Shown here: positions 4,699 to 26,219 of the stretch, piece after piece | Numbering within the stretch: the first letter of the stretch is position 1 | Layout of the letters: each line of letters starts with the position of its first letter | Assembly (NCBI RefSeq): GCF_000022265.1 | Contig: NC_011979.1 | Location: forward strand, 2,370,001 to 2,402,000 | Length of the DNA: 32,000 nucleotides | Source of the DNA: Geotalea daltonii FRC-32 | Lineage (GTDB): Bacteria > Desulfobacterota > Desulfuromonadia > Geobacterales > Geobacteraceae | Direction of reading: 5' to 3' | Made by a program: the position numbers and the translations under genes | Notes under the pieces: generated by a model | Databases searched by the model: none | Told to the model about the DNA's origin: nothing | The model's input: the letters and a program-made list of their open reading frames with translations, nothing else

Positions 4699-6372
4699 AT
4701 GTCTGGTAAATTTTATTTTTGCAATCTCTGGTTGTTCTGCGCCCTGATATCAGCAGGTTATTGTCTGGTCGGCACTGCACCTAGTGCCTGGGCTCTTTCA
4801 TCTTCCAATATCCCCCTCGATAGCCCCATCTATTCCTACCTGGAAAAGCTTGGTGGTCTTGGTTTGATAAAAAGCGATGTAAAAGGCATCAGGCCTTTTT
4901 CCAAGGCTGAAGCTGCAAGGCTCGTGCTCGAAGCGGAAGGGAACCTTACTGCCGCCGACGTAGGCCAACAGCCTTTTGCAAATGAACTGATCGCCCGCAT
5001 TCATGATCTGATCCCCCGTGAGATATCGCTGCGTAAAAATCCTGATCAAAAGCCGCCGGTTCTCGACCACAATCTGATCTCCTCCCTGCGTTTCCGCTAT
5101 GTCTACCTGGATGGTACATCGCGCAACTATGAGCGTCCAGTCCATGATCCCGGCGATGACGGTGTCTTCGGCCTTGGCTCAGGGTTGCGACCGATAAATC
5201 CTTACCCATCGCCTGCCCAGCAGCGTGGGGCCGAGGGGACGCCGCTTCTTGAAAACAACAACGGCGTTATTTACCGTGACGGCAGCAATGGCGAGCTTCG
5301 TTGGGCGGCGGAGGCCTATCTGAGTGATAAGGTGACCGGTCTCATTGAACCGTCCATTCTCATCGGGGATGATAATCGGATCAGGATGAATCGCGGTTAC
5401 GTCAAGCTTGGAGGCGGCGGCATCGAGCTTGAGTTTGGCAAGGACGAGAACTGGCTTGGCCAAGGCTATCGCGGCAATATTACCCTTACCAGTAATGCCG
5501 AAAACTTTACCCTTGTAAAACTGTCAAGCCCGGAGCCGGTGCGTGTCGGGTGGCTTTCGTGGCTAGGTGATCTTAAGTATGCCCTTATCGCGTCACGGTT
5601 CGACAAGACCAATACCGGCGGAGTAGAGCGTCAGCCATGGTTTTACGCACTGAAGCTGGTATCGAAGCCGACCGACAATCTGGAGATTGGTTTCAACCTG
5701 GGCCGGCAAGTTGGGGGGCCTGGCGTTAAGAGCGGCACCGGCGATACTTTACGTGGGTTGATCGGTGGCACCAGTGCCGACAATTCCAATGGAATGGCTG
5801 GCTTCGAACTTCGCTATCGCATGCCATGGCTGCGCAACACGGAACTATACGGGGAGTTTTCAGGCGAGGATACCGCTTCATTCTGGCCTATAGTTGAGAG
5901 CTATGTGGCCGGCTTTTATATCCCCCGCCTGACGGGTGACGGCAGGAATGATTTCCGCTTCGAGTTTTTCCAGGGCAACCAGATCCTCTATACCAACGGC
6001 ACCTTTCCGGAGGGGTATCTTTACAAAGGGCTGCCCATCGGACATTCCCAAGGCGGGGCCGTTCAGGACTTCTTTGCCCGCTATAGTCATTGGTTTTCCG
6101 TACGCAACAACCTTGCCCTCGAATACATCTTCACCCAACGGGGCAACCTGGGGCGGGTGAAGGTGGACAGTTCCGGTAACTTTGATGCCAACGGGACCCT
6201 GCAGGCGGTGGAACGGAAGCACGCAGGAAGAATCCACTGGCGGTTGCCCATCTACGGCGATATGGATGCCGAGCTGACCTATGGGTATGAGCGGATCAGC
6301 AACTTTGACCTTGTCCCAGGGGCAGGCAGGAAGAATCAGCTCTTTGTTGCGGAAATAACCTATCGATATTGA
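4699..6372 (+). CDS. Capsule-assembly Wzi-family outer-membrane protein
   Basis: The ORF track starts at GTG 4693; ATG 4699 gives MSGKFYFCNLWLFCALISAGYCLVGTAPSAWA, a signal peptide. LDSPIYSYLEKLGGLGLIKSDVKGIRPFSKAEAARLVLEAE is the Wzi N-terminal signature. The body is Gly/aromatic-rich with alternating beta-barrel-like character and ends ...EITYRY. Confidence 0.7.
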   Translation: MSGKFYFCNLWLFCALISAGYCLVGTAPSAWALSSSNIPLDSPIYSYLEKLGGLGLIKSDVKGIRPFSKAEAARLVLEAEGNLTAADVGQQPFANELIARIHDLIPREISLRKNPDQKPPVLDHNLISSLRFRYVYLDGTSRNYERPVHDPGDDGVFGLGSGLRPINPYPSPAQQRGAEGTPLLENNNGVIYRDGSNGELRWAAEAYLSDKVTGLIEPSILIGDDNRIRMNRGYVKLGGGGIELEFGKDENWLGQGYRGNITLTSNAENFTLVKLSSPEPVRVGWLSWLGDLKYALIASRFDKTNTGGVERQPWFYALKLVSKPTDNLEIGFNLGRQVGGPGVKSGTGDTLRGLIGGTSADNSNGMAGFELRYRMPWLRNTELYGEFSGEDTASFWPIVESYVAGFYIPRLTGDGRNDFRFEFFQGNQILYTNGTFPEGYLYKGLPIGHSQGGAVQDFFARYSHWFSVRNNLALEYIFTQRGNLGRVKVDSSGNFDANGTLQAVERKHAGRIHWRLPIYGDMDAELTYGYERISNFDLVPGAGRKNQLFVAEITYRY

Positions 6373-6378
6373 ATGGGC

Positions 6379-6485
6379 AGTGATTGGTGACAGGGTGAAG
6401 AGTCAAGAGTGAACAGTGAACAGTGAACAGTGAACAGTTTTTTAACCTCGAACCTCGAACCTCGAACATAGAACATAGAACTGAG
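6379..6485 (+). repeat. Heptamer-periodic intergenic array A: AGTGATT GGTGACA GGGTGAAG AGTCAAG (AGTGAAC)x4 / T6 / (AACCTCG)x3 (AACATAG)x2 AACTGAG
   Basis: Read directly. AGTGAAC occurs at 6408, 6415, 6422 and 6429. T6 is at 6438-6443. AACCTCG occurs at 6444, 6451 and 6458. AACATAG occurs at 6465 and 6472. Confidence 0.9.
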
Positions 6486-6526
6486 AAGGATGAGAAGTGA
6501 TTCCTCAGCAATGGAACCCATATTTT

Positions 6527-6563
6527 GCTTGCAAATCGAAACCCTGGGTTGTAATCTGCAAGC
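6527..6563 (+). promoter_or_regulatory. Imperfect 10-bp inverted repeat (GCTTGCAAAT ... ATCTGCAAGC) abutting the ATG of the AAA ATPase gene; possible operator or translation-occluding hairpin
   Basis: 6527-6536 pairs with 6554-6563 at 9 of 10 positions around a 17-nt loop. The right arm ends one base before ATG 6564. No obvious Shine-Dalgarno sequence. Confidence 0.3.
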
Positions 6564-7715
6564 ATGATTGAGCGATTTAAATATGCGGCGGTGATGAAGT
6601 CGGTGCAAACGTTTCCGGTCACCGCGCTTTTGGGGCCGCGCCAGGTAGGCAAAACCACGCTTGCCAAGCAGTTGGCCGGGCAGTATGGTGGCTCCACCAT
6701 CTATCTCGATCTGGAACTCCCTTCCGATCTTAACAAACTGCAATCACCGGAATTATACCTGCGGGAACATAGCGATGCACTGATCATTATTGACGAGATC
6801 CAGCGTAAACCGGAGCTCTTTGCCCTACTGAGGGCATTGGTTGATCAGGAACGACGTCCTGGACGTTTTATGATTCTCGGATCAGCCTCACCTGATCTCA
6901 TGCGTCATGCGTCGGAAAGCCTTGCCGGACGTGTTGTCTATCATGAGTTACCACCCCTTTGTCTCACAGAAACCGGTTCCGACAGTATCCGTAAACTATG
7001 GTTGCGTGGTGGCTATCCCAACAGCTTCCTTGCCGGATCTGATGCTGAAAGCCACCAATGGCGGCAAGCCTTTATTGCCACATATCTGGAGCGGGACATT
7101 CCCCAGCTTGGCGTACGTATTCCTGCAGCACAACTGGGCCGTTTCTGGACAATGTTGGCGCACCTGAATGGGCAACTCTGGAATGCCAGCCACATCGCTG
7201 CCGGCATGGGGCTCTCATCGACGACTATGCGGCATTACCTCGATGTTCTTGAGGATACGTTCATTATCCGGCAACTGAAACCGTGGTTCGCAAATACCGG
7301 TAAACGTCTGACCAAGGCACCGAAAATATATTTGCGAGACACAGGATTGCTCCATAGCTTACTGCAACTGGGTACTGAGGATCTCTTGATGAGCCATCCT
7401 GGTGTTGGCAGCTCGTGGGAGGGATTCGTGATCGAGCAGATACTGGCTACGCTCCCTGATGGCTATCAGTCTTTTTTCTATCGCACAAACGCTGGTGCAG
7501 AAATAGACATGATTCTCGCCGATGGGAAGAAAAAGATCGCAGTCGAGGTAAAATATTCCGCCACCCCTAAAGTGTCAAAGGGCTTTTGGTTTGCTTTCAA
7601 AGATCTAGGCTGTCACAAGGGGTATGTAGTATATCCGGGCAGAGACCGCTATCCGATCGGGGAGGGTGTCGAAGCATTGCCGGCTGTGGAACTTTCTGAA
7701 ATTGTCAATCAGTGA
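6564..7715 (+). CDS. AAA+ ATP-binding protein, AAA_14 + DUF4143 architecture
   Basis: 383 aa. Walker A is LLGPRQVGKTTLAKQL and Walker B is ALIIIDEIQ. The DUF4143-type C-terminal half has FWTMLAHLNGQLWNASHIAAGMGLSSTTMRHYLDVLEDTFIIRQLKPWFANTGKRLTKAPKIYLRDTGLLHSLL. Confidence 0.8.
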   Translation: MIERFKYAAVMKSVQTFPVTALLGPRQVGKTTLAKQLAGQYGGSTIYLDLELPSDLNKLQSPELYLREHSDALIIIDEIQRKPELFALLRALVDQERRPGRFMILGSASPDLMRHASESLAGRVVYHELPPLCLTETGSDSIRKLWLRGGYPNSFLAGSDAESHQWRQAFIATYLERDIPQLGVRIPAAQLGRFWTMLAHLNGQLWNASHIAAGMGLSSTTMRHYLDVLEDTFIIRQLKPWFANTGKRLTKAPKIYLRDTGLLHSLLQLGTEDLLMSHPGVGSSWEGFVIEQILATLPDGYQSFFYRTNAGAEIDMILADGKKKIAVEVKYSATPKVSKGFWFAFKDLGCHKGYVVYPGRDRYPIGEGVEALPAVELSEIVNQ

Positions 7716-7841
7716 TTGGTGATTGGTGATTGGTGATTGGTGATTGGTGAGGATAACCTTAAAAGCCTTAACCACGAATAACTCGAATGAACACGAATAA
7801 AGACAAGAGAAAGTGACAATAACTTCGAACGTAGAACTGTT
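7711..7841 (+). repeat. Heptamer-periodic array B: AGTGATT (GGTGATT)x4 GGTGAGG, then a degenerate A-rich spacer with CACGAATAA x2, then AACTTCG AACGTAG AACTGTT
   Basis: Read directly. The left arm is 7711-7752, and the stop codon of the upstream gene (7713-7715) lies inside its first unit. CACGAATAA is at 7773-7781 and 7792-7800. The right arm is 7821-7841. Confidence 0.9.
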
Positions 7842-7855
7842 TCACAGGAGACAAA

Positions 7856-8734
7856 ATGATCAAAAGCATGACCGGCTACGGCAAAGCCGAGGCAGATTCA
7901 CAAACTGGCAAACTGACGGTGGAGATACGGTCGGTCAATCATCGCTATGGCGAGATTTTCGTCAAGCTGCCCCGGCTGTACATGCCCTTCGAGAATGAGG
8001 TGAAAAAGGCGGTTGGCCAAAAGCTGAAGCGGGGTAAGATAGAAGTCTTCATTCAGCGTGAGGAGACTGCTGCCGGCGGTGCCATGCCCGTTGTAAATCT
8101 GGAGCTGGCCAAGGGGTACTATCAGGCTTTTTCCAGTATCAGGGATGCCATCGGCTTGAAGGAAGAGGTGCCGCTCTCTCTAATTACCGGCCAGAGAGAT
8201 GTAATTGGCGCGGGTGAAATTGCTGCTGTTCCTGAGTCTGTCCCGACCGAGCTTCTTGCCGCTGTCGAGTCTGCTGCAAATAATCTGGATGCAATGCGCA
8301 GCCGGGAAGGTGAGGCCCTGCTGGATGATCTGCAAAAAAGGCGGGCTTTCCTTTCTGTTCTTATTGCGCGCATTGCCGGGCGTGCGCCGCAGGTGGTTGC
8401 CGATTATGCCGTCAGGCTCAAAGAGCGTGTGGCCCAGCTTTCCGGTGACAGTACCGTGACCGAGGAGCGTCTGGCCCAGGAAATAGCAATCATGGCCGAC
8501 CGTTGCGATATTACCGAAGAATTGGTTCGCTTCAACAGCCATCTGCAGCAATTTGACGAAACCATTGTCCTCACGGAACCGGTCGGTCGCAAGCTGGACT
8601 TTCTCCTGCAGGAGATCAACCGGGAGGTGAACACCATCGGTTCAAAGGCCAACGATGGGGAAATCGCGGCCTGTGTGGTCGAACTCAAGGCTGAACTTGA
8701 AAAGATCCGCGAACAGGTGCAAAATGTCGAGTGA
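7856..8734 (+). CDS. yicC: YicC-family stress-induced protein
   Basis: 292 aa. The MIKSMTGYGKAE start, SVNHRY, and C-terminal LLQEINREVNTIGSKAND are YicC/TIGR00255 hallmarks. AGGAG is at 7846-7850. Confidence 0.9.
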   Translation: MIKSMTGYGKAEADSQTGKLTVEIRSVNHRYGEIFVKLPRLYMPFENEVKKAVGQKLKRGKIEVFIQREETAAGGAMPVVNLELAKGYYQAFSSIRDAIGLKEEVPLSLITGQRDVIGAGEIAAVPESVPTELLAAVESAANNLDAMRSREGEALLDDLQKRRAFLSVLIARIAGRAPQVVADYAVRLKERVAQLSGDSTVTEERLAQEIAIMADRCDITEELVRFNSHLQQFDETIVLTEPVGRKLDFLLQEINREVNTIGSKANDGEIAACVVELKAELEKIREQVQNVE

Positions 8735-8758
8735 GACGGTGAATGGTGAGGGGTGAGG
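8731..8758 (+). repeat. Heptamer array C (left-type units only): GTGAGAC GGTGAAT GGTGAGG GGTGAGG
   Basis: Read directly. It overlaps the yicC stop (8732-8734) and runs into the purine-rich stretch before the gmk ATG at 8772. Confidence 0.8.
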
Positions 8759-8771
8759 GAAGGAAACGACA

Positions 8772-9380
8772 ATGAAACGTGAAGGTATTTTGTTTGTTAT
8801 TTCGGCTCCTTCGGGGGCGGGGAAGACCACGCTGTGCAAGGAAGTAATTGACATTTTCCCGAACTTGCGGCATTCTGTCAGCTACACTACGCGTTCTGCG
8901 AGGCCCGGCGAGGTACATGGCCGGGATTATTTTTTTATATCCCTTGATGAATTCAAACGCATGGTGGCAGCGGATGAATTTGCCGAATGGGCCGAGGTTC
9001 ATGGCAATTTTTACGGTACTGCCCTCAAAACCCTTGAAGAATATAAGACCAAGGGGATAGATGTCATACTGGATATCGACTGCCAGGGTGCGCATCAGCT
9101 GAAAAAAAGATATAATGGAGCCGTATACCTGTTTGTACTGCCCCCCAGCTACCAGGAGCTGCGCCGCCGTCTTGACTGCCGCAGTTCCGATGCCCCCGAG
9201 GTCATTGATCGCCGTATCGAGGCTGCTGCAGGCGAAATTAAAGAATCGCGCTGGTATGATTACATCATCATCAATGATGTTTTTCCCAAGGCGGTAGAAG
9301 AGTTGAAGTCAGTGCTGATTGCCGAGCAATGCAAGACAAATCGCGTACTGACAGGGGTATCTGAGTTGTTTGAGATATAG
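8772..9380 (+). CDS. gmk: Guanylate kinase
   Basis: 202 aa. P-loop is ISAPSGAGKTTL. Also present: SVSYTTRSARPGEVHGRDYFF and EWAEVHGNFYGT. Confidence 0.95.
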   Translation: MKREGILFVISAPSGAGKTTLCKEVIDIFPNLRHSVSYTTRSARPGEVHGRDYFFISLDEFKRMVAADEFAEWAEVHGNFYGTALKTLEEYKTKGIDVILDIDCQGAHQLKKRYNGAVYLFVLPPSYQELRRRLDCRSSDAPEVIDRRIEAAAGEIKESRWYDYIIINDVFPKAVEELKSVLIAEQCKTNRVLTGVSELFEI

Positions 9381-9384
9381 AGGC

Positions 9385-9458
9385 GGGGATTGGTGATTGG
9401 TGAGGTTTTAACCTCGAACTTCGAATTTTGAACATAGAACATAGAACATAGAACGGTT
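9385..9458 (+). repeat. Heptamer array D: GGGGATT GGTGATT GGTGAGG / T4 / AACCTCG AACTTCG AATTTTG (AACATAG)x3 AACGGTT
   Basis: Read directly. It fills almost the whole gmk-rpoZ gap. AGGAG at 9464-9468 follows. Confidence 0.9.
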
Positions 9459-9474
9459 TTTAAAGGAGCATATA

Positions 9475-9684
9475 ATGGCACGAGTTACCGTTGAGGATTG
9501 TCTGGAAAAGGTCGATAATCGCTTCCTGTTGGTGATGCTGGCGTCGAAAAGGGTGAAGCAGCTTTTCAAGGGTGCAAAGCCCCTCATAGACAACCGGGCC
9601 GCCAACAAGAACGTGGTCGTATCTCTTCGCGAAATTGCCGCCGGCAAAGTGAATTTCGAGATTAGCAGCCGCAAAAGCCGCTAA
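9475..9684 (+). CDS. rpoZ: DNA-directed RNA polymerase subunit omega
   Basis: 69 aa. [30 protein letters not shown] is the canonical RpoZ N-terminus. Confidence 0.95.
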
Positions 9685-9697
9685 TCTCAAGGCTGTC

Positions 9698-9731
9698 AAA
9701 GGGGGGAACATTGCGCTTCCGCCCTTTTTTT
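9698..9731 (+). terminator. Putative intrinsic terminator after rpoZ
   Basis: GGGGGGAA (9701-9708) pairs with TTCCGCCC (9717-9724) with one mismatch. A T7 run follows at 9725-9731. Confidence 0.55.
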
Positions 9732-9744
9732 GTCTTCAAAATGC

Positions 9745-9800
9745 GGTGAGGAGCGAAGAGTGAGGAGAAACAGCTTTACCCCTCACACCTTACGCCTCAC
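9745..9800 (+). repeat. Heptamer array E, self-complementary variant: GGTGAGG AGCGAAG AGTGAGG ... CCCCTCAC ACCTTAC GCCTCAC
   Basis: The reverse complement of 9779-9800 (GTGAGGCGTAAGGTGTGAGGGG) aligns unit-by-unit with 9746-9767. This predicts an imperfect hairpin about 20 nt upstream of the relA ATG. Confidence 0.8.
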
Positions 9801-9819
9801 TGGGGGTTGCTGACTTTCA

Positions 9820-11970
9820 ATGATCAGGCTGAACGACATACTGGAAAAGGTTTCTTCCTATAATCCTTCCTGTGACCTGGAACTGGTAAGAAAGGCATAT
9901 GTTTTCTGTGCCAAGGTTCACCAGGGACAGACCAGGCTTTCGGGTGAGCCTTATCTTGTGCACCCCATGGAGGTGGCGGGGGTACTGGCTGAGCTGAAGC
10001 TTGATGTACCGACGGTCGTCACGGGTCTTCTCCATGATACGGTCGAGGATACCCTGACAACCCTTGAAGAACTGGAGGAAATGTTCGGCCCTGAAGTCGC
10101 CCGACTGGTTGACGGTGTTACGAAGATCGGCAAGATTCATTTCAAGACCAAGGAGGAGAGCCAGGCGGAAAACTTCCGCAAGATGCTTCTCGCCATGGCC
10201 AACGATATCCGTGTCATCCTGGTCAAGCTGGCCGACCGCTTGCACAATATGCGGACTCTTCAGTACCAGCCGGAACCGAAACAGCGGAGCATCGCCAAGG
10301 AAACGCTGGATATCTACGCGCCCATAGCCAATAGGCTCGGTATATCCTGGGTGAAAAGCGAGCTGGAGGACCTTTCTTTCCGCTACCTGGACCCGCAGAT
10401 CTATTACGATCTTGCATCCAAGGTGACCAAGAAGAAGAAAGAGCGCGAGACCTACGTGGATGAGGTGATGCAGATCATCAAGGCCAAGCTCGTGGATCAC
10501 GGCATAAAGGGAGAGGTGTCCGGCAGGAGCAAACACCTGTACTCCATCTACCGGAAGATGCAGAGCCGCAGTGTGGATATAGACGAGATTTACGACCTTA
10601 TCGCCATCCGCGTCATGGTCGAGGATATCAGGGAATGCTATGAAGTCCTCGGCATCATTCATTCCACCTGGAAGCCTATTCCTGGTCGCTTTAAAGATTA
10701 CATCGCCATGCCGAAGGGGAACATGTACCAATCCCTGCATACAACGGTGATAGGCCCCTATGGCGAGAGGATGGAGGTGCAGATCCGCACTTCGGAGATG
10801 CATCGGGTGGCAGAAGCGGGCATCGCTGCCCACTGGAAATACAAGGAAGGCAAAGGTTATGATGAAAAAGAGGTAAAGCGCTTCACTTGGTTGCGCCAGT
10901 TGCTGGAATGGCAGCAAGAGCTGGATGATTCACGGGAATTCATGGACACCGTGAAGGTCGAACTCTTTCCGGAGGAGGTCTATGTCTTCACGCCCAAGGG
11001 GGATGTGAAAGGCTATCCCAAGGGATCGACGCCAATAGACTTTGCCTATAGCGTCCATACGGACGTCGGCCATCGCTGTGTGGGCGCCAAGGTAAACGGC
11101 AAGCTCGTGCCGTTGAAATATGAGCTGAAGAATGGCGATATAGTTGAGGTCATCACTTCACCCCACCATACCCCCAGTAAGGACTGGCTGAAAATAGTGA
11201 GGAGCTCCCGGGCAAGGAACAAGATCCGTGCCTGGATCAAGACCGAAGAGCGGTTGCGCAGCATAACCCTTGGCCGGGAAATCTGTGAAAAGGAGTTCCG
11301 CCGCTATTCCCAGAACTTTTCAAAAGTGCAGAAAACAGGCGAGCTGAAACGGGTGGTTGGCGAATTCGGTTTCGTCGGCGAAGACGACCTGATGGCAGCG
11401 GTTGGCTATGGCAAGCTGTCATGCCAGCAGATCCTGGGCAAGCTTTTCCCGGCCGAGAAATTCGAAGAGGCCCAGGACCGCAAGGAAACCCGCGTCGGCA
11501 AGGTTATCCAGAAACTCAAGGGTAAATCTTCCAGTGCCATACAGATCAGCGGTGTGGACGATGTCCTGGTTCGTTTCGGCAAGTGCTGTAATCCTTTGCC
11601 CGGCGACGACATCGTTGGCTTCATTACCAGGGGGCGCGGAGTCACGGTGCATACCGCCGACTGTCCCTTTGCCCTGGATAGCGATCCGCAGCGACGTATC
11701 GACGTGGCTTGGAACAAGGGTAAAAAAACGGCCCTGCCGGTCAAGATGCGGATCGCCTGTCACGACGAAAAAGGAATTCTGGCCAATATCACCACCGCCA
11801 TCACCAACTGCGAAGCAAACATCGTTAGTGCATCCATCCAGAGCACCGTCGACAAGAGGGGCATCAATACGTTCGAAGTGGATGTAACCGATCTGGATCA
11901 CCTGAACAGGGTCTTCAACAGCGTCATGAAGGTGAAGGGCGTGATCAAGGTGGACCGGCTCAAGTCTTAG
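9820..11970 (+). CDS. relA: Bifunctional (p)ppGpp synthetase/hydrolase (RelA/SpoT homologue, Rel type)
   Basis: 716 aa. The HD hydrolase motif is intact (HPMEVAGVLAEL...LLHDTVEDT). The synthetase region has RSKHLYSIYRKM and DLIAIRV. TGS (VFTPKGD) and C-terminal ACT-like regions are present. Confidence 0.95.
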   Translation: MIRLNDILEKVSSYNPSCDLELVRKAYVFCAKVHQGQTRLSGEPYLVHPMEVAGVLAELKLDVPTVVTGLLHDTVEDTLTTLEELEEMFGPEVARLVDGVTKIGKIHFKTKEESQAENFRKMLLAMANDIRVILVKLADRLHNMRTLQYQPEPKQRSIAKETLDIYAPIANRLGISWVKSELEDLSFRYLDPQIYYDLASKVTKKKKERETYVDEVMQIIKAKLVDHGIKGEVSGRSKHLYSIYRKMQSRSVDIDEIYDLIAIRVMVEDIRECYEVLGIIHSTWKPIPGRFKDYIAMPKGNMYQSLHTTVIGPYGERMEVQIRTSEMHRVAEAGIAAHWKYKEGKGYDEKEVKRFTWLRQLLEWQQELDDSREFMDTVKVELFPEEVYVFTPKGDVKGYPKGSTPIDFAYSVHTDVGHRCVGAKVNGKLVPLKYELKNGDIVEVITSPHHTPSKDWLKIVRSSRARNKIRAWIKTEERLRSITLGREICEKEFRRYSQNFSKVQKTGELKRVVGEFGFVGEDDLMAAVGYGKLSCQQILGKLFPAEKFEEAQDRKETRVGKVIQKLKGKSSSAIQISGVDDVLVRFGKCCNPLPGDDIVGFITRGRGVTVHTADCPFALDSDPQRRIDVAWNKGKKTALPVKMRIACHDEKGILANITTAITNCEANIVSASIQSTVDKRGINTFEVDVTDLDHLNRVFNSVMKVKGVIKVDRLKS

Positions 11971-11974
11971 AGAC

Positions 11975-12053
11975 GGTGATTGGTGATTGGTGATTGGTGA
12001 GGAGCTGTGCCGCTTTTTAACATCGAACCTTGAACTTCGAACGTAGAACTGTC
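11975..12053 (+). repeat. Heptamer array F: (GGTGATT)x3 GGTGAGG / AGCTGTGCCGCTTTTT / AACATCG AACCTTG AACTTCG AACGTAG AACTGTC
   Basis: Read directly. It starts 4 nt after the relA stop and ends 15 nt before the ridA ATG. Confidence 0.9.
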
Positions 12054-12068
12054 TGTATGGGGGAATTT

Positions 12069-12455
12069 ATGAAAAAACAAATAATCGCTACGGAAAAGGC
12101 GCCAAAAGCCATTGGACCATATTCCCAAGGGGTGAAAGCGGGTGGCTTTATCTTTTTTTCCGGGCAGATCCCACTTGATCCTGTGACGGGAGAGATACGA
12201 GGCGCCACTTGTGCCGAGCAGGCGGAGCAGGTCATGGAAAACATCGGCGCCATGTTGGCAGCGGTCGGTGTCGATTTTACCGCCGTGGTGAAAACAACCA
12301 TCTTCCTTACGGACTTGGCAGATTTTGCGGCAGTCAATGAGATTTACGGCAGGAGATTCCCAGTGGACCCGCCGGCTCGTTCCACTGTGGAGGTGAAGGG
12401 GCTGCCCCGGGGGGTAAAGGTTGAGATCGAGGTTATAGCTTTCGGTGATTGGTGA
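12069..12455 (+). CDS. ridA: RidA-family reactive-intermediate deaminase (YjgF/TdcF)
   Basis: The ORF track starts at 12030. ATG 12069 with GGGGGA upstream gives MKKQIIATEKAPKAIGPYSQGV..., the typical RidA start. The last four codons and the stop (GGT GAT TGG TGA) are made of GGTGATT repeat units. Confidence 0.9.
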   Translation: MKKQIIATEKAPKAIGPYSQGVKAGGFIFFSGQIPLDPVTGEIRGATCAEQAEQVMENIGAMLAAVGVDFTAVVKTTIFLTDLADFAAVNEIYGRRFPVDPPARSTVEVKGLPRGVKVEIEVIAFGDW

Positions 12456-12526
12456 TTGGTGATTGGTGATTGGTGATTGGTGATTGGTGATTGGTGATTG
12501 GTGATTGGTGGCGGTGACGGGTGACG
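12444..12526 (+). repeat. Heptamer array G, left arm: (GGTGATT)x9 GGTGGC (GGTGACG)x2
   Basis: Nine perfect tandem GGTGATT units span 12444-12506. It is the longest array in the window and overlaps the ridA 3' end. Confidence 0.95.
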
Positions 12527-12540
12527 AGGTCCGGTGTCTT

Positions 12541-12598
12541 TTGTCACAAGTCACGTGTCACTTGTCACTGCTTTAATGTCACTTGTCACCGCTTTAAA
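12541..12598 (+). repeat. Array G, inner module: (NNGTCAC)x6 including a 21-nt direct repeat TGTCACTTGTCAC[T/C]GCTTTAA x2; complementary to the GGTGAC units at 12513-12526
   Basis: GTCAC occurs at 12543, 12550, 12557, 12564, 12578 and 12585. The 21-mers at 12556-12576 and 12577-12597 differ at one base. Confidence 0.9.
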
Positions 12599-12604
12599 CC
12601 TACG

Positions 12605-12637
12605 AAAAAAAGCCGCCAACGAATACTCGCGGCGGCT
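12605..12637 (-). terminator. Intrinsic terminator of rpmB
   Basis: The minus strand reads AGCCGCCGCGAGTATTCGTTGGCGGCTTTTTTT. This is a GCCGCC/GGCGGC stem followed by T7. Confidence 0.75.
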
Positions 12638-12651
12638 TAGCTTAAGATTGT

Positions 12652-12679
12652 AACCTCGAACCTAGAACTTAGAACAGTT
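12652..12679 (+). repeat. Array G, right arm: AACCTCG AACCTAG AACTTAG AACAGTT
   Basis: Read directly. It lies between the rpmB stop codon (12681-12683) and the rpmB terminator. Confidence 0.85.
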
Positions 12680-12680
12680 T

Positions 12681-12872
12681 TTAGAGCGCCTTCGTTACAT
12701 GGCCTGAGCGGATGCAGCGGGTGCAGACCTTGATGCTGCGAACGGTTCCGTTTTTAACGGCTTTTATCTTCTGCAGGTTGGGGTACCAGGTTCTGCTGGT
12801 TTTGTTATTGGCGTGGCTGACGTTGTTACCGAAGCTCGGACCTTTACCGCATATTTCACATACTTTGGACAT
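12681..12872 (-). CDS. rpmB: 50S ribosomal protein L28
   Basis: [34 protein letters not shown]... (63 aa) from ATG 12872, with GGAGGG 7 nt upstream. The longer 84-aa ORF start at 12935 was rejected. Confidence 0.95.
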
Positions 12873-24173: not shown

Positions 24174-26219
24174 ATGGCCGCAGATACTAGTATAGACAAA
24201 GCTGCCAAGGATTTTCTTGCAGAAGCAGAAGAAATTATCGACCAGTTAAGCCTTGATCTGGTCTCTCTCAGCGACTGCGCTGACAGTGGCGACTTCAATC
24301 CGGACGTGGTCAATTCCATCTTCCGCGGCGCCCATTCACTTAAAGGGCTTGCCGGCATGTTCGGCTTTACCGACATCGCAGACCTTTCCCACAACATGGA
24401 GAACCTCCTTGACTCCCTTCGACTCGGGAAAATCCCCTTGAACCAGAATACCATCAGCGTTCTTTTCGATTCCATGGAAATCCTGGGTTCGCTGGTGAGA
24501 GGTGCGGGTTCTGCCGATTCAGGGAAAACGGACATATCTCAGACCATATCCCGTATCAATGCCTGTGTCGCTTTGGTGCAGAAAGATGAGGGTGCATCTC
24601 CTCTGACCAGACTGGGACTTTCAGAGCGAGTACTCAGCTCCCTTACCGAATATGAAGAACATCGTCTGCTGGAGAATGTGAAAAAGAACAAGAATATCTT
24701 CTCCATCCAGGCGTCCTTCAGTCTCTCCACATTTGATCAGGATCTGGGAGAACTTACCGAAATCCTCAAGGGTGCCGGAGAAGTGATCAGCACCCTGCCA
24801 AGCGCCGGTGGTGGTCTTGATTCCTCCATAAACTTCGAGATCCTCTTCGGATCGGAAAAGGGTACTGCAGAAATAAGCCTGCTTATCGACCGGGACAATA
24901 TCACCGTAAATCAATTGGGGGGTAAGCAGCCTGCGGTTACAGCAGCAAAAGCAAAAGCAGAAGTAGTAGAAGAAGCTGAAGCCGAAAAAGAGTCATCTGT
25001 CCTGCCTCAGGAAGCTTCTTTGACTGCTAAGAGTATGAGTCGTACCGTCAGGGTGGATATCAGCAAACTTGATGAATTGATGAACATCGTGGGGGAGCTG
25101 GTGCTTTCCCACTCCACGATCAGTCAGATAGCTGACCGCATGCGACTGGAAGGCTATTCGGCCCCCGCCATAAATCTGACCAAGGCTGCCAAGGGATTGG
25201 AGAGAAAACTGACCGAACTGCAGAAGGGTGTCATGGAAATCCGCATGATTCCTGTGGGTCAGCTTTTTGAGAAGATGGCACGCATTGTGCGGAAAATTTC
25301 CCGTGAACAGGGCAAAAAGGTGGAACTGAGGTTGTTCGGCGCCGATACGGAGCTGGATAAACTTATCATAGAAGACATTTCCGACCCGATGATGCACATT
25401 ATCCGCAATGCCATCGACCACGGTATTGAGACCCCAGGTGAACGGGTCAGGGCAGGGAAGGACGAAAAAGGTATCATCAAGCTTTCCTCCTACCAGAAAG
25501 GGAACCATGTCGTTATCGAGGTTGAGGACGATGGTGGCGGGATAGATGTCGATAAAGTAAGGCGTAAGGCTTTCGACAAGGGGTTGATACCGAGCATGGA
25601 GTCGGTCCATGACAGAGAGGCGCTGGATCTGATATTCCTTCCCGGCTTCTCCACAAGTGACGAGGTGAGTGAGATTTCAGGGCGCGGCGTCGGCATGGAT
25701 GTGGTCAGGACCAACATCGCCGCCCTGTCCGGCATGGTGGATGTTGAAAGCGTTCCCGGCAAAGGTAGCAGTATCATCATAACCCTGCCCATCACACTTG
25801 CCATTATCAAGGCACTCATAATCTCTTCCGTCGGCCGAATCTATGCTCTTCCCATTACATCAGTCCTGGAAACCATAATGGTGGAAAGGAAGGATGTGCG
25901 TACTGTGGAAAAGAAGGAAGTTATCCAGTTGCGGGAAACAACCCTGCCCCTGCTTCGTCTGGGCAGGTTCTTCGAAACCCAGTCACAAATCGACCAAGGG
26001 GAAAATTTTTATGTGGTGGTGGTCGGCGCCGCCGAGAAGCGACTGGGTATAGTGGTCGATGATCTGATGGGGCAGCAGGATATAGTCATTAAGTCTATCG
26101 GTGAAACATTTAAAAATTTCAAGGGTATTTCCGGTGCTGCCGACCTTGGGGACCAGCGAACCATCCTGGTACTTGATGTGGGCGGTATAATCAACGAGGC
26201 GGTCAGGAGCGGGGCTTAA
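24174..26219 (+). CDS. cheA: Chemotaxis histidine kinase CheA
   Basis: 681 aa. Hpt is FRGAHSLKGLAGMFGF. The dimerisation region is RTVRVDISKLDELMNIVGELV. N box is HIIRNAIDHGIE, G1 is DDGGGID, G2 is GRGVGMDVV. A CheW-like P5 domain lies at the C-terminus. Confidence 0.93.
   Translation: MAADTSIDKAAKDFLAEAEEIIDQLSLDLVSLSDCADSGDFNPDVVNSIFRGAHSLKGLAGMFGFTDIADLSHNMENLLDSLRLGKIPLNQNTISVLFDSMEILGSLVRGAGSADSGKTDISQTISRINACVALVQKDEGASPLTRLGLSERVLSSLTEYEEHRLLENVKKNKNIFSIQASFSLSTFDQDLGELTEILKGAGEVISTLPSAGGGLDSSINFEILFGSEKGTAEISLLIDRDNITVNQLGGKQPAVTAAKAKAEVVEEAEAEKESSVLPQEASLTAKSMSRTVRVDISKLDELMNIVGELVLSHSTISQIADRMRLEGYSAPAINLTKAAKGLERKLTELQKGVMEIRMIPVGQLFEKMARIVRKISREQGKKVELRLFGADTELDKLIIEDISDPMMHIIRNAIDHGIETPGERVRAGKDEKGIIKLSSYQKGNHVVIEVEDDGGGIDVDKVRRKAFDKGLIPSMESVHDREALDLIFLPGFSTSDEVSEISGRGVGMDVVRTNIAALSGMVDVESVPGKGSSIIITLPITLAIIKALIISSVGRIYALPITSVLETIMVERKDVRTVEKKEVIQLRETTLPLLRLGRFFETQSQIDQGENFYVVVVGAAEKRLGIVVDDLMGQQDIVIKSIGETFKNFKGISGAADLGDQRTILVLDVGGIINEAVRSGA

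Follow-up and report, generated by a model that had tools for sequence, protein, structure and literature searches.

Heptanucleotide tandem arrays anchored to stop and start codons in seven consecutive intergenic gaps of Geotalea daltonii

The seven consecutive intergenic gaps from wzi to rpmB in Geotalea daltonii FRC-32 (designated A to G) carry arrays of tandem 7-nt units. These are lineage-specific microsatellites with a heptanucleotide unit, a kind known from earlier catalogues of Geobacteraceae repeats. The DNA analysed, called here the window, was a stretch of 32,000 nucleotides (contig NC_011979.1, positions 2,370,001 to 2,402,000 of the forward strand), and coordinates refer to this window unless another contig is named. 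The genes follow each other in the order wzi, a gene for an AAA_14/DUF4143 ATPase, yicC, gmk, rpoZ, relA/spoT, ridA and the convergent rpmB. The two arms seen in several of the gaps are two separate modules, each anchored to its own gene boundary, and not one bipartite element. We propose, with a probability of roughly 45%, that the arrays were made by slippage and filtered by what the operon mRNA tolerates beside stop and start codons, and that young (GGTGATT)n runs overwrote the 5′ arm of older hairpins.

The arrays were far more numerous than expected by chance. Over the whole window, 21 matches to GGTGATTGGTGA were found when one mismatch at most was allowed, all on the + strand, as compared to 0.19 expected from shuffled sequences, and AACNTNGAACNTNGAAC was matched 15 times as compared to 0.03. 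Tandem Repeats Finder reported period-7 arrays in gaps A to D, F and G, with 2 to 9.6 copies and 77 to 100% identity, the GGTGATT runs being 100% perfect; the 7-nt periodicity of gap E was read directly from the sequence. A scan of the window for periods 5 to 9 returned six period-7 segments and one period-6 segment (24940-24972), and no period-7 segment lay outside 6.3-12.7 kb. Inspection of the remaining gaps of the window (61, 97, 55, 140 and 77 nt, and others) revealed no comparable arrays either. An earlier note on this DNA, made from the sequence alone, had likewise reported nothing similar in the other gaps; all the units and positions it listed were found in the sequence, as were the AACNGT(T/C) ends of the right-type runs. 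Its description of the left units as C-free was correct for the listed units other than AGTGAAC, which contains a C. The whole window gave no Rfam match at the gathering score, and the region 6300-12800 searched at E<=1 produced only sub-threshold noise, at no more than 27 bits against gathering scores of 58-72. No match to the literal sequence GGTGATTGGTGATT was obtained in a text search of the literature.

The possibility of an assembly artefact, raised with the first description, was ruled out by two other sequences. An independent short-read contig from another sample (L122) was 100% identical over positions 7724-12471, arrays C to F included, and the arrays were also present in a strain 98% identical to the window (L121). 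Both ends of L122 (window 7724 and 12471) fell inside GGTGATT arrays. This contig, being fully identical and ending within arrays, was set aside for the comparison of copy numbers and confirmed the sequence only. Since GGTGATT repeats break assemblies, copy numbers from short-read metagenome-assembled genomes need caution.

The first module is G/T-rich, with a (N)GTGA(NN) core, and begins at the upstream stop codon or a few bases past it, twice supplying that stop. The second is G-poor, with an AAC(N)T(N)G core, and ends 10-25 nt ahead of the next start codon. The unit logo of the left arm displayed a conserved GTGA with free positions 1, 6 and 7, and that of the right arm an almost invariant AAC, intermediate conservation of T5 and G7, and free positions 4 and 6. 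The perfect GGTGATT runs look young, and the degenerate AAC arms look older or constrained. Two arm families could be distinguished, one with a GTGA core and the complementary partner TCAC, the other with a GTTC core and the complementary partner GAAC. In gaps A, B, D and F the 5′ arm is of the GTGA type and the 3′ arm of the GAAC type, and the two do not pair.

The same modules were observed in many other bacteria. In species-representative genomes at least 120 loci contained (GGTGATT)3, distributed among the matches listed over cyanobacteria, Bacteroidota, Xanthomonadales-type Gammaproteobacteria, Planctomycetota, Verrucomicrobiota, Acidobacteriota and others, and (AACNTNG)3AAC was present in at least 120 metagenome contigs. 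Among the matches listed, which are also the basis of the distances and arm orders that follow, 95 of 128 arrays of one type and 113 of 151 of the other had no complementary partner array within 200 nt. GGTGATT arrays lay at a median of 18 nt past a same-strand stop codon (34 of 55 within 30 nt), with the right-hand neighbour 88-105 nt away, and for AACNTNG arrays the median distance was 20-26 nt to the right-hand gene, compared with 69-80 nt to the left-hand one. The earlier reading of the arms as one bipartite unit is not borne out by this distribution, in which most of the sampled arrays stand without a complementary partner and each is anchored to its own boundary. Where inverted pairs existed, in many phyla, 68 had the G/T-rich arm on the 5′ side of the A/C-rich arm and 3 had the reverse order, and each arm abutted the nearer gene boundary. 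In cyanobacterial loci (GGTGATT)n stood beside other heptamer arrays, with the G/T-rich ones first and the A/C-rich ones after. The rule extended to other heptamer arrays of the fetched loci: on the sense strand, G exceeded C in 28 against 7 arrays located 42 nt or less after a stop codon, and C exceeded G in 13 against 2 located 42 nt or less before a start codon. The window conforms to the anchoring, to the arm order and to the general G/C rule. One metagenome contig (Ga0209719_1008652, L163) held 16 matches to the AACNTNG pattern, many of them apparently inside long open reading frames (ORFs), and may represent a translated repeat.

The arrays grow and shrink in 7-nt steps and turn over fast among relatives. 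When the orthologous gaps were compared, as had been suggested with the first description, in stretches of up to about 20 kb from the relatives, they differed in the presence of arrays, in unit type and in copy number. Between the window and L121 all changes were of whole 7-nt units. The GTGATT-type units on the left of gap B numbered five in the window and two in L121, the AACNTNG units on its right two and three, the GGTGATT units on the left of gap D one and three, and the AACATAG units on its right three and at least six. No clean indel boundary could be drawn in gap A, the wzi regions being non-homologous. Geotalea sp. SG265 (L123), whose Gmk is 93% identical, shows the same two-part grammar with partly other units (AGTGAAG, AGTGAGG). 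In L124 and L251 (Gmk 90%) 7-periodic arrays exist in some gaps and are absent from others, L252 (Gmk 81%) has GTGA-core units in the yicC-gmk and gmk-rpoZ gaps, L128 (Gmk 80%) has arrays in every gap, with both arms complementary, and L125 (Gmk 79%) has none. The closest relative, L250 (Gmk 95%), also has none, with gaps of 19 and 17 nt in the two that its 1.6-kb contig covers, yicC-gmk and gmk-rpoZ.

In L128 complementary arms are seen, for example, between relA and ridA, with (GTTCTAT)n...(AACATAG)n, and between yicC and gmk, with (NGTGAGG)4...(CCCTCAC)4. SG265 has a complementary CCTCACT-type second arm in its yicC-gmk gap, unlike gap C of the window. A GAAC arm precedes ridA in L128, SG265 and the window, and the 5′ part of the relA-ridA gap differs in each. 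Units within one genome were more alike than orthologous arrays in other genomes. The positions 17297-17362 of L128, between PSP1 and holB, contain (GGTTCTA)3 GGTTTT (AACATTG)(AACGTTG)2, so that arrays also exist outside the yicC-ridA operon. The gap contents of the relatives indicate that the arrays are dispensable, fast-evolving and not bound to the stringent-response genes as such; the link to a stringent-response cluster made by the earlier note is unsupported, given the array-free gaps of L250 and the further array of L128.

In gap A the after-stop module (6379-6437, + strand) consists of AGTGATT, GGTGACA, degenerate units and four AGTGAAC (6408-6435), and begins 7 nt past the wzi stop (6370-6372). 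The G-poor module (6438-6485, + strand) opens with a T6 junction (6438-6443), followed by a right-type run (6444-6485) of three AACCTCG, two AACATAG and AACTGAG. Downstream lies a 25-codon upstream ORF (6490-6567, ATG at 6490 with GAAGGA ahead), whose TGA overlaps the ATG of the DUF4143 gene (ATGA, 6564-6567); it may be a coupling leader peptide, and the 3′ part of its sequence is conserved in L121.

Gap B starts with AGTGATT and four GGTGATT (7711-7745) closed by a GGTGAGG cap at 7746, the module covering 7711-7752 on the + strand; its first unit contains the TGA stop of the ATPase gene (7713-7715). After a non-periodic core of about 70 nt (7753-7820), the before-start module AACTTCG, AACGTAG, AACTGTT (7821-7841, + strand) ends 14 nt ahead of the yicC ATG (7856). 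Three CACGAATAA-like 9-mers were visible inside this gap at 7773-7800. Gap C, bounded by the yicC stop (8732-8734) and the gmk ATG (8772), has the left arm only, GGTGAAT and two GGTGAGG (8738-8758, + strand). Gap D begins 4 nt past the gmk stop (9378-9380) with GGGGATT, GGTGATT and GGTGAGG (9385-9405, + strand), continued by a before-start module (9406-9458, + strand) made of a TTTT junction and a right-type run (9410-9458) of AACCTCG, AACTTCG, AATTTTG, three AACATAG and AACGGTT, which ends 16 nt ahead of the rpoZ ATG (9475). At the junction GAGGTT/AACCTC can form a hairpin of about 5 bp, and the cap GGTGAGG followed by TT exactly complements the first right unit, a complementarity that is by inference the tip of an older hairpin.

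A terminator-like hairpin stands directly 3′ of rpoZ (9701-9731, GGGGGGAA...TTCCGCCC followed by T7). It is kept in L123, L124, L125 and L128 and may be an attenuator between rpoZ and relA. Between it and the relA ATG (9820) gap E holds a 7-periodic hairpin (9745-9800, + strand) of GGTGAGG, AGCGAAG and AGTGAGG, a loop, and CCCTCAC, ACCTTAC and GCCTCAC. The after-stop module of gap F (11975-12002, + strand), three GGTGATT and a GGTGAGG cap, begins 4 nt past the relA stop (11968-11970). A T5 tract (12014-12018) leads to AACATCG, AACCTTG, AACTTCG, AACGTAG and AACTGTC (12019-12053, + strand), ending 15 nt ahead of the ridA ATG (12069).

Gap G is the most complex. Its after-stop array is composed of nine GGTGATT (12444-12506, + strand), the first of which supply the three final codons of ridA (G-D-W) together with its stop (12453-12455). 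The RidA C-terminus reads ...IAFGDW* in the window as compared to ...IAYAG* in SG265: the intergenic repeat has rewritten the end of ridA. In gaps B, C and G the upstream stop codon is within a GUGA. The core of gap G (12507-12600, + strand) is a 7-periodic, G-U-rich hairpin of GGTGGCG, GTGACGG and GTGACGA units facing (N)TGTCAC units, with a 21-nt (3 x 7) direct repeat, TGTCACTTGTCACCGCTTTAA, present twice at 12556-12597. A bidirectional terminator-like hairpin follows at 12605-12638 (A7, GCCGCC...GGCGGC), with a U7 on the - strand serving rpmB. The supposed right arm of G (12652-12679), AACCTCG, AACCTAG, AACTTAG and AACAGTT on the + strand, reads AACTGTT, CTAAGTT, CTAGGTT and CGAGGTT on the - strand. 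It starts 1 nt past the rpmB stop (12681-12683) and is therefore the after-stop array of rpmB on the - strand, a better reading than the earlier one in which both arms of gap G formed a single array.

Folding separated the gaps into two groups. The z-scores against dinucleotide shuffles were +2.2 for A, +0.8 for B, +1.4 for C, +0.5 for D and -0.8 for F, no better than shuffles; gaps E (-2.1) and G (-3.5) both fold. On this ground, pairing of the arms as RNA, with G-U pairs allowed, could be discarded in gaps A, B, C, D and F. The two non-pairing arms that had been attributed to every gap are present in A, B, D and F; gap C has the left arm only, and E and the core of G are complementary hairpins. 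In the hairpin-type gaps of this lineage, namely the core of gap G here, four SG265 gaps and L251, the sense RNA folded 3-19 kcal/mol better than the antisense, with a total of 48 G-U pairs in sense against 24 in antisense; for the core of gap G alone the energies were -44.5 and -30.3 kcal/mol, respectively. The gaps of L128 folded about equally in both senses. No sigma-70-like promoter match was found inside the gaps. The sense-biased folding and the absence of promoter matches favour elements which matter on, or are filtered on, the operon transcript, and argue against DNA palindromes or operators.

It is conceivable that the after-stop arrays are selected ribosome-handling elements, GGUGAUU pairing with the 16S tail and GUGA being a GUG start that overlaps a UGA stop; the arrays would retain ribosomes that terminate and hand them to the following cistron over a long spacer. 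The stops located inside GUGA would agree with this, as would the pairing strength: against a 16S 3′ tail (GAUCACC) that was assumed and not read from the genome, GGUGAUU reached -10.6 kcal/mol, ranking first among 20 permutations of its own composition and within the top 4.5% of 2340 heptamer classes, and GGUGAGG fell within the top 0.4%. As a general property of after-stop arrays, 16S-tail pairing was rejected, the 33 other units being unenriched (median percentile 0.47), and AGUGAAC and AGUGAAG bind the tail weakly. A mini-ORF relay through the GUGA overlaps was also rejected: in reaching the next start the chains did not surpass those of shuffled gaps, between 49 and 476 of the 500 shuffles doing as well in five gaps, and no chain starts in gap E. 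Furthermore, the same arrays exist in Bacteroidota, which make little use of Shine-Dalgarno pairing. We consider ribosome handling of this kind distinctly improbable.

The gap between wzi and yicC is a cargo-insertion site (window 6564-7715; L121 8420-8952; L123 8377-8906). It contains the DUF4143 ATPase gene in the window and in L121, and a toxin-antitoxin pair with weak Phd/YefM and YafQ/RelE-like similarity in L121 and SG265. On either side of the L121 cassette stands a copy of a core of about 70 nt (GGATAACCTTAAAAGCC...AAAGACA), which the window has once (7751-7817). Such cargo would agree with the view that the arrays are copies of a small mobile element, similar to a miniature inverted-repeat transposable element or to a repetitive extragenic palindrome (REP), inserting between genes in one orientation. 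The location of all arrays on one strand points in the same direction, as does the common build of gaps A, D and F, in which a left run leads through a (G)TTTT(T)AAC junction to a right run closed by GAACNGT(T/C). Against this, we found no conserved non-repeat body, terminal inverted repeats or target duplication, the units and copy numbers vary between gaps, and the arms are solitary in most loci among the matches listed. The hybrid pattern had no match in viral contigs, in which 12 loci with (GGTGATT)3 were found, and the changes between strains are whole 7-nt units, as slippage predicts. A mobile origin is very improbable in our opinion.

The reading that we prefer, slippage followed by filtering on the mRNA, can be put as follows. 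The arrays would be created by replication slippage in the transcribed spacers of the yicC-gmk-rpoZ-relA-ridA operon. Their fixed polarity would reflect an mRNA filter, G/T-rich and stop-containing sequence being tolerated right after a stop codon, and G-poor sequence, free of Shine-Dalgarno-like or start-like motifs, right before a start codon. The ancestral form may have been a pair of complementary arms forming an intercistronic stem-loop in the sense RNA, which would survive in relatives and in gaps E and G. Here, young and perfect (GGTGATT)n would have overwritten the 5′ arm, turning gaps A, B, D and F into unstructured spacers. Any present effect would be modulatory, on cistron spacing, coupling or stability, and non-essential.

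Several observations weigh against this scheme. The opening energy of the ribosome-binding site was below that of shuffles only in gaps B (3%) and E (1%), and not in F (17%), D (79%) or C (97%), a mixed result for the proposed mRNA filter. Stop triplets were barely commoner in after-stop than in before-start arrays (65% vs 53%). The polarity statistics were obtained from crude ORF calls on loci ascertained through two query patterns. The scheme does not account for the clustering of arrays in one operon. The same cores (GTGA/TCAC, GTTC/GAAC) recur across phyla, and the uneven logos, with near-invariant AAC and GTGA, are unpredicted by pure slippage and drift and fit recognition by a factor.

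Because of these logos and of the recurrence of the cores, recognition by a sequence-specific protein in a 7-nt or 7-bp register stays a live rival, though one that we judge unlikely. The protein could bind RNA on the operon mRNA, with cold-shock or S1-type OB folds or as a HutP-like ring (UAG-N4). Each arm has a conserved 4-nt core at an exact 7-nt spacing with free linker positions, and the greater likeness of units within a genome than between orthologues would fit co-evolution with a factor. HutP reads UAG-N4 repeats, and three AACAUAG units amount to (UAG-N4)3. The HutP antiterminator site comprises UAG triplets at 4-nt spacing, three in each of two sets, together with a hutP gene; one full set of three AACATAG was present in gap D (9431-9451) and two units in gap A, with no second set at about 20 nt. 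In another version a ribbon-helix-helix protein would bind duplex DNA as does omega/ParB of pSM19035 on 7-10 contiguous 5′-WATCACW-3′ heptads, AGTGATT being a literal omega heptad and GGTGATT (reverse complement AATCACC) one W position off (PMC9499535). When at least four contiguous WATCACW were looked for, the exact heptads were the AGTGATT at 6379 and 7711. No promoter-like match was seen in the gaps and no ribbon-helix-helix gene nearby; the small ORFs checked near the arrays of L121 and L123 are the weak Phd/YefM and YafQ/RelE pair, and no candidate protein emerged. The arrays lie away from predicted promoters, they have a single orientation relative to the genes, which a duplex-DNA operator would not need, and the sense-specific G-U pairing speaks against a DNA-level palindrome. 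They are also absent from the two gaps available in L250, and phyla sharing the same heptamer are unlikely to share one small regulator.

We think it improbable that there are two boundary classes of arrays, one after stops and G/U-rich (GUGA/GUUC), the other before starts and G-poor (GAAC/UCAC), recognized on the sense mRNA by a conserved reader in a 7-nt register (the 16S tail for GGUGAUU, or an OB-fold RNA-binding protein), slippage tuning the coupling of cistrons. If such a reader existed, the mechanism would have left its footprint in the 68:3 order of the arms and in G-U pairing specific to the sense strand.

To our knowledge, neither a function nor a generating mechanism has been shown for heptanucleotide repeats, which rank with the most frequent long simple repeats of bacteria. 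The present locus is a compact natural test bed, in which arrays occupy seven gaps in a row within one essential operon, in hairpin-forming and in non-pairing versions, with relatives that have no arrays (in the two gaps seen) or other copy numbers. The regularities observed across phyla, G/T-rich at the stop, G-poor at the start and a fixed arm order, provide concrete predictions. If the arrays are merely tolerated products of slippage, their value is for annotation and assembly, as contigs break in them and last codons are rewritten.

Among known systems, two well-described classes do not apply, as the earlier note had already concluded. CRISPR arrays have repeats of 23-55 nt, with unique spacers of comparable length between them; here the period is 7 nt and there are no spacers. 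REP elements and bacterial interspersed mosaic elements are imperfect palindromes of 20-40 nt forming one hairpin; here gaps A, B, C, D and F do not fold better than their shuffles, and hold tandem arrays instead of single palindromes. The omega ribbon-helix-helix (ParB) protein of pSM19035 binds contiguous 7-bp 5′-WATCACW-3′ parS/operator heptads (PMC9499535), which resemble the window units by their contiguity and by the ATCAC/GTGAT core. The omega heptads, from a Firmicute plasmid, overlap promoters in mixed orientation beside the omega gene, whereas the window arrays are inside an operon and in one orientation.

Heptamer repeats with a comparable position have been described in Xanthomonas (GGGAATC) and Nostoc (GGGGA(T/C)T) by Rehm et al. 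2015 as intergenic, stop-proximal, transcribed and present in inverted pairs (PMC4692102). Their length varies between close strains, no function was found, and they form G-quadruplexes in vitro (PMC4692102). The position rule is the same, with the G-rich strand at most 50 bp after stop codons (PMC4692102), and GGGGATT, one base from GGTGATT, exists once in the window at 9385, so that action through a G-quadruplex, as proposed for those repeats, might be envisaged for the G-rich arrays of the window. GGTGATT has tracts of GG only, short of the four or more tracts of at least three G that define such heptamers, and is not predicted to form a G-quadruplex: with the G-quadruplex option of ViennaRNA none was present in the minimum-free-energy structure of (GGUGAUU)9, as opposed to the controls (GGGAAUC)4 and (GGGGAUU)4. 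This mode of action is scarcely credible here.

MacGregor 2015 reported TAACTGA direct repeats from marine Beggiatoaceae, cyanobacteria and Bacteroidetes, placed shortly upstream of start codons, with S1, Csp or CsrA proposed to bind them (PMC4679880). They are similar to the right arms in being G-poor, in sense, and a few nucleotides upstream of starts, including those of essential genes, and ...GAACTGA at 6479 in the window may be compared with them. The unit is otherwise different, and in the window a normal Shine-Dalgarno sequence follows the array. More generally, the arrays belong to the prokaryotic heptanucleotide simple-sequence repeats (LSSR/STRR): they are head-to-tail 7-nt copies beyond chance, and their copy number varies by whole units among close strains, as observed between the window and L121. 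The likeness lies in intergenic, slippage-variable heptamers; this is a general class for which no gene-boundary grammar has been described. In the sources considered here, reports of such repeats go back to 1990 for cyanobacteria, with Xanthomonas, Beggiatoaceae and Geobacter following later. As cited in PMC4679880, Mrazek et al. 2007 found 7 nt to be the most abundant unit category in most repeat-rich genomes and suggested polymerase slippage, and the STRR heptamers of heterocystous cyanobacteria are attributed to Mazel et al. 1990 (cited in PMC4679880 and PMC4692102).

The nearest likenesses were found in Geobacter. In G. metallireducens, the class 3 paired "global regulator binding sites" are (MTYCTGA)5 on opposite strands, for which binding of IHF or HU was proposed (Aklujkar et al. 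2009, PMC2700814). Tandem heptanucleotide pairs in opposite orientation at a variable distance recall gaps E and G and the L128 arrays. The consensus is another one, and gaps A, B, D and F of the window pair two non-complementary unit types; no window unit fits MTYCTGA, and inverted pairs are restricted to gap E and the core of G, so that the arrays were not assigned to class 3.

In G. bemidjiensis, Table S6 of Aklujkar et al. 2010 (PMC2996986) annotates [CAATTGA]n CAA (56 arrays), [AACGTTG]n AAC (45 arrays in 22 gaps) and [GGGGCTR]n, repeats whose significance "remains to be elucidated" (PMC2996986). The mention of tandem heptanucleotide intergenic repeats in annotated Geobacter genomes, made tentatively in the earlier note, is thus well founded. 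No GGTGATT/GGTGAGG family is listed in that table, unlike in the window, and the units AACCTCG, AACTTCG and AACATAG of the window differ from AACGTTG in that they are not self-complementary. The resemblance is nevertheless close: the family, Geobacteraceae, is the same, and both sets are strict 7-nt intergenic tandems of AAC-N-T-N-G closed by AAC, nearly always between genes of the same direction and often with several arrays per gap. All 22 of the 22 [AACGTTG]n AAC gaps of G. bemidjiensis are of the "3' of X / 5' of Y" type (PMC2996986), and the right arms at 6444, 7821, 9410 and 12019, in same-direction gaps, agree with the published consensus. The arrays of the window are therefore not a new kind of element, and their right arm falls under the [AACGTTG]n AAC type.

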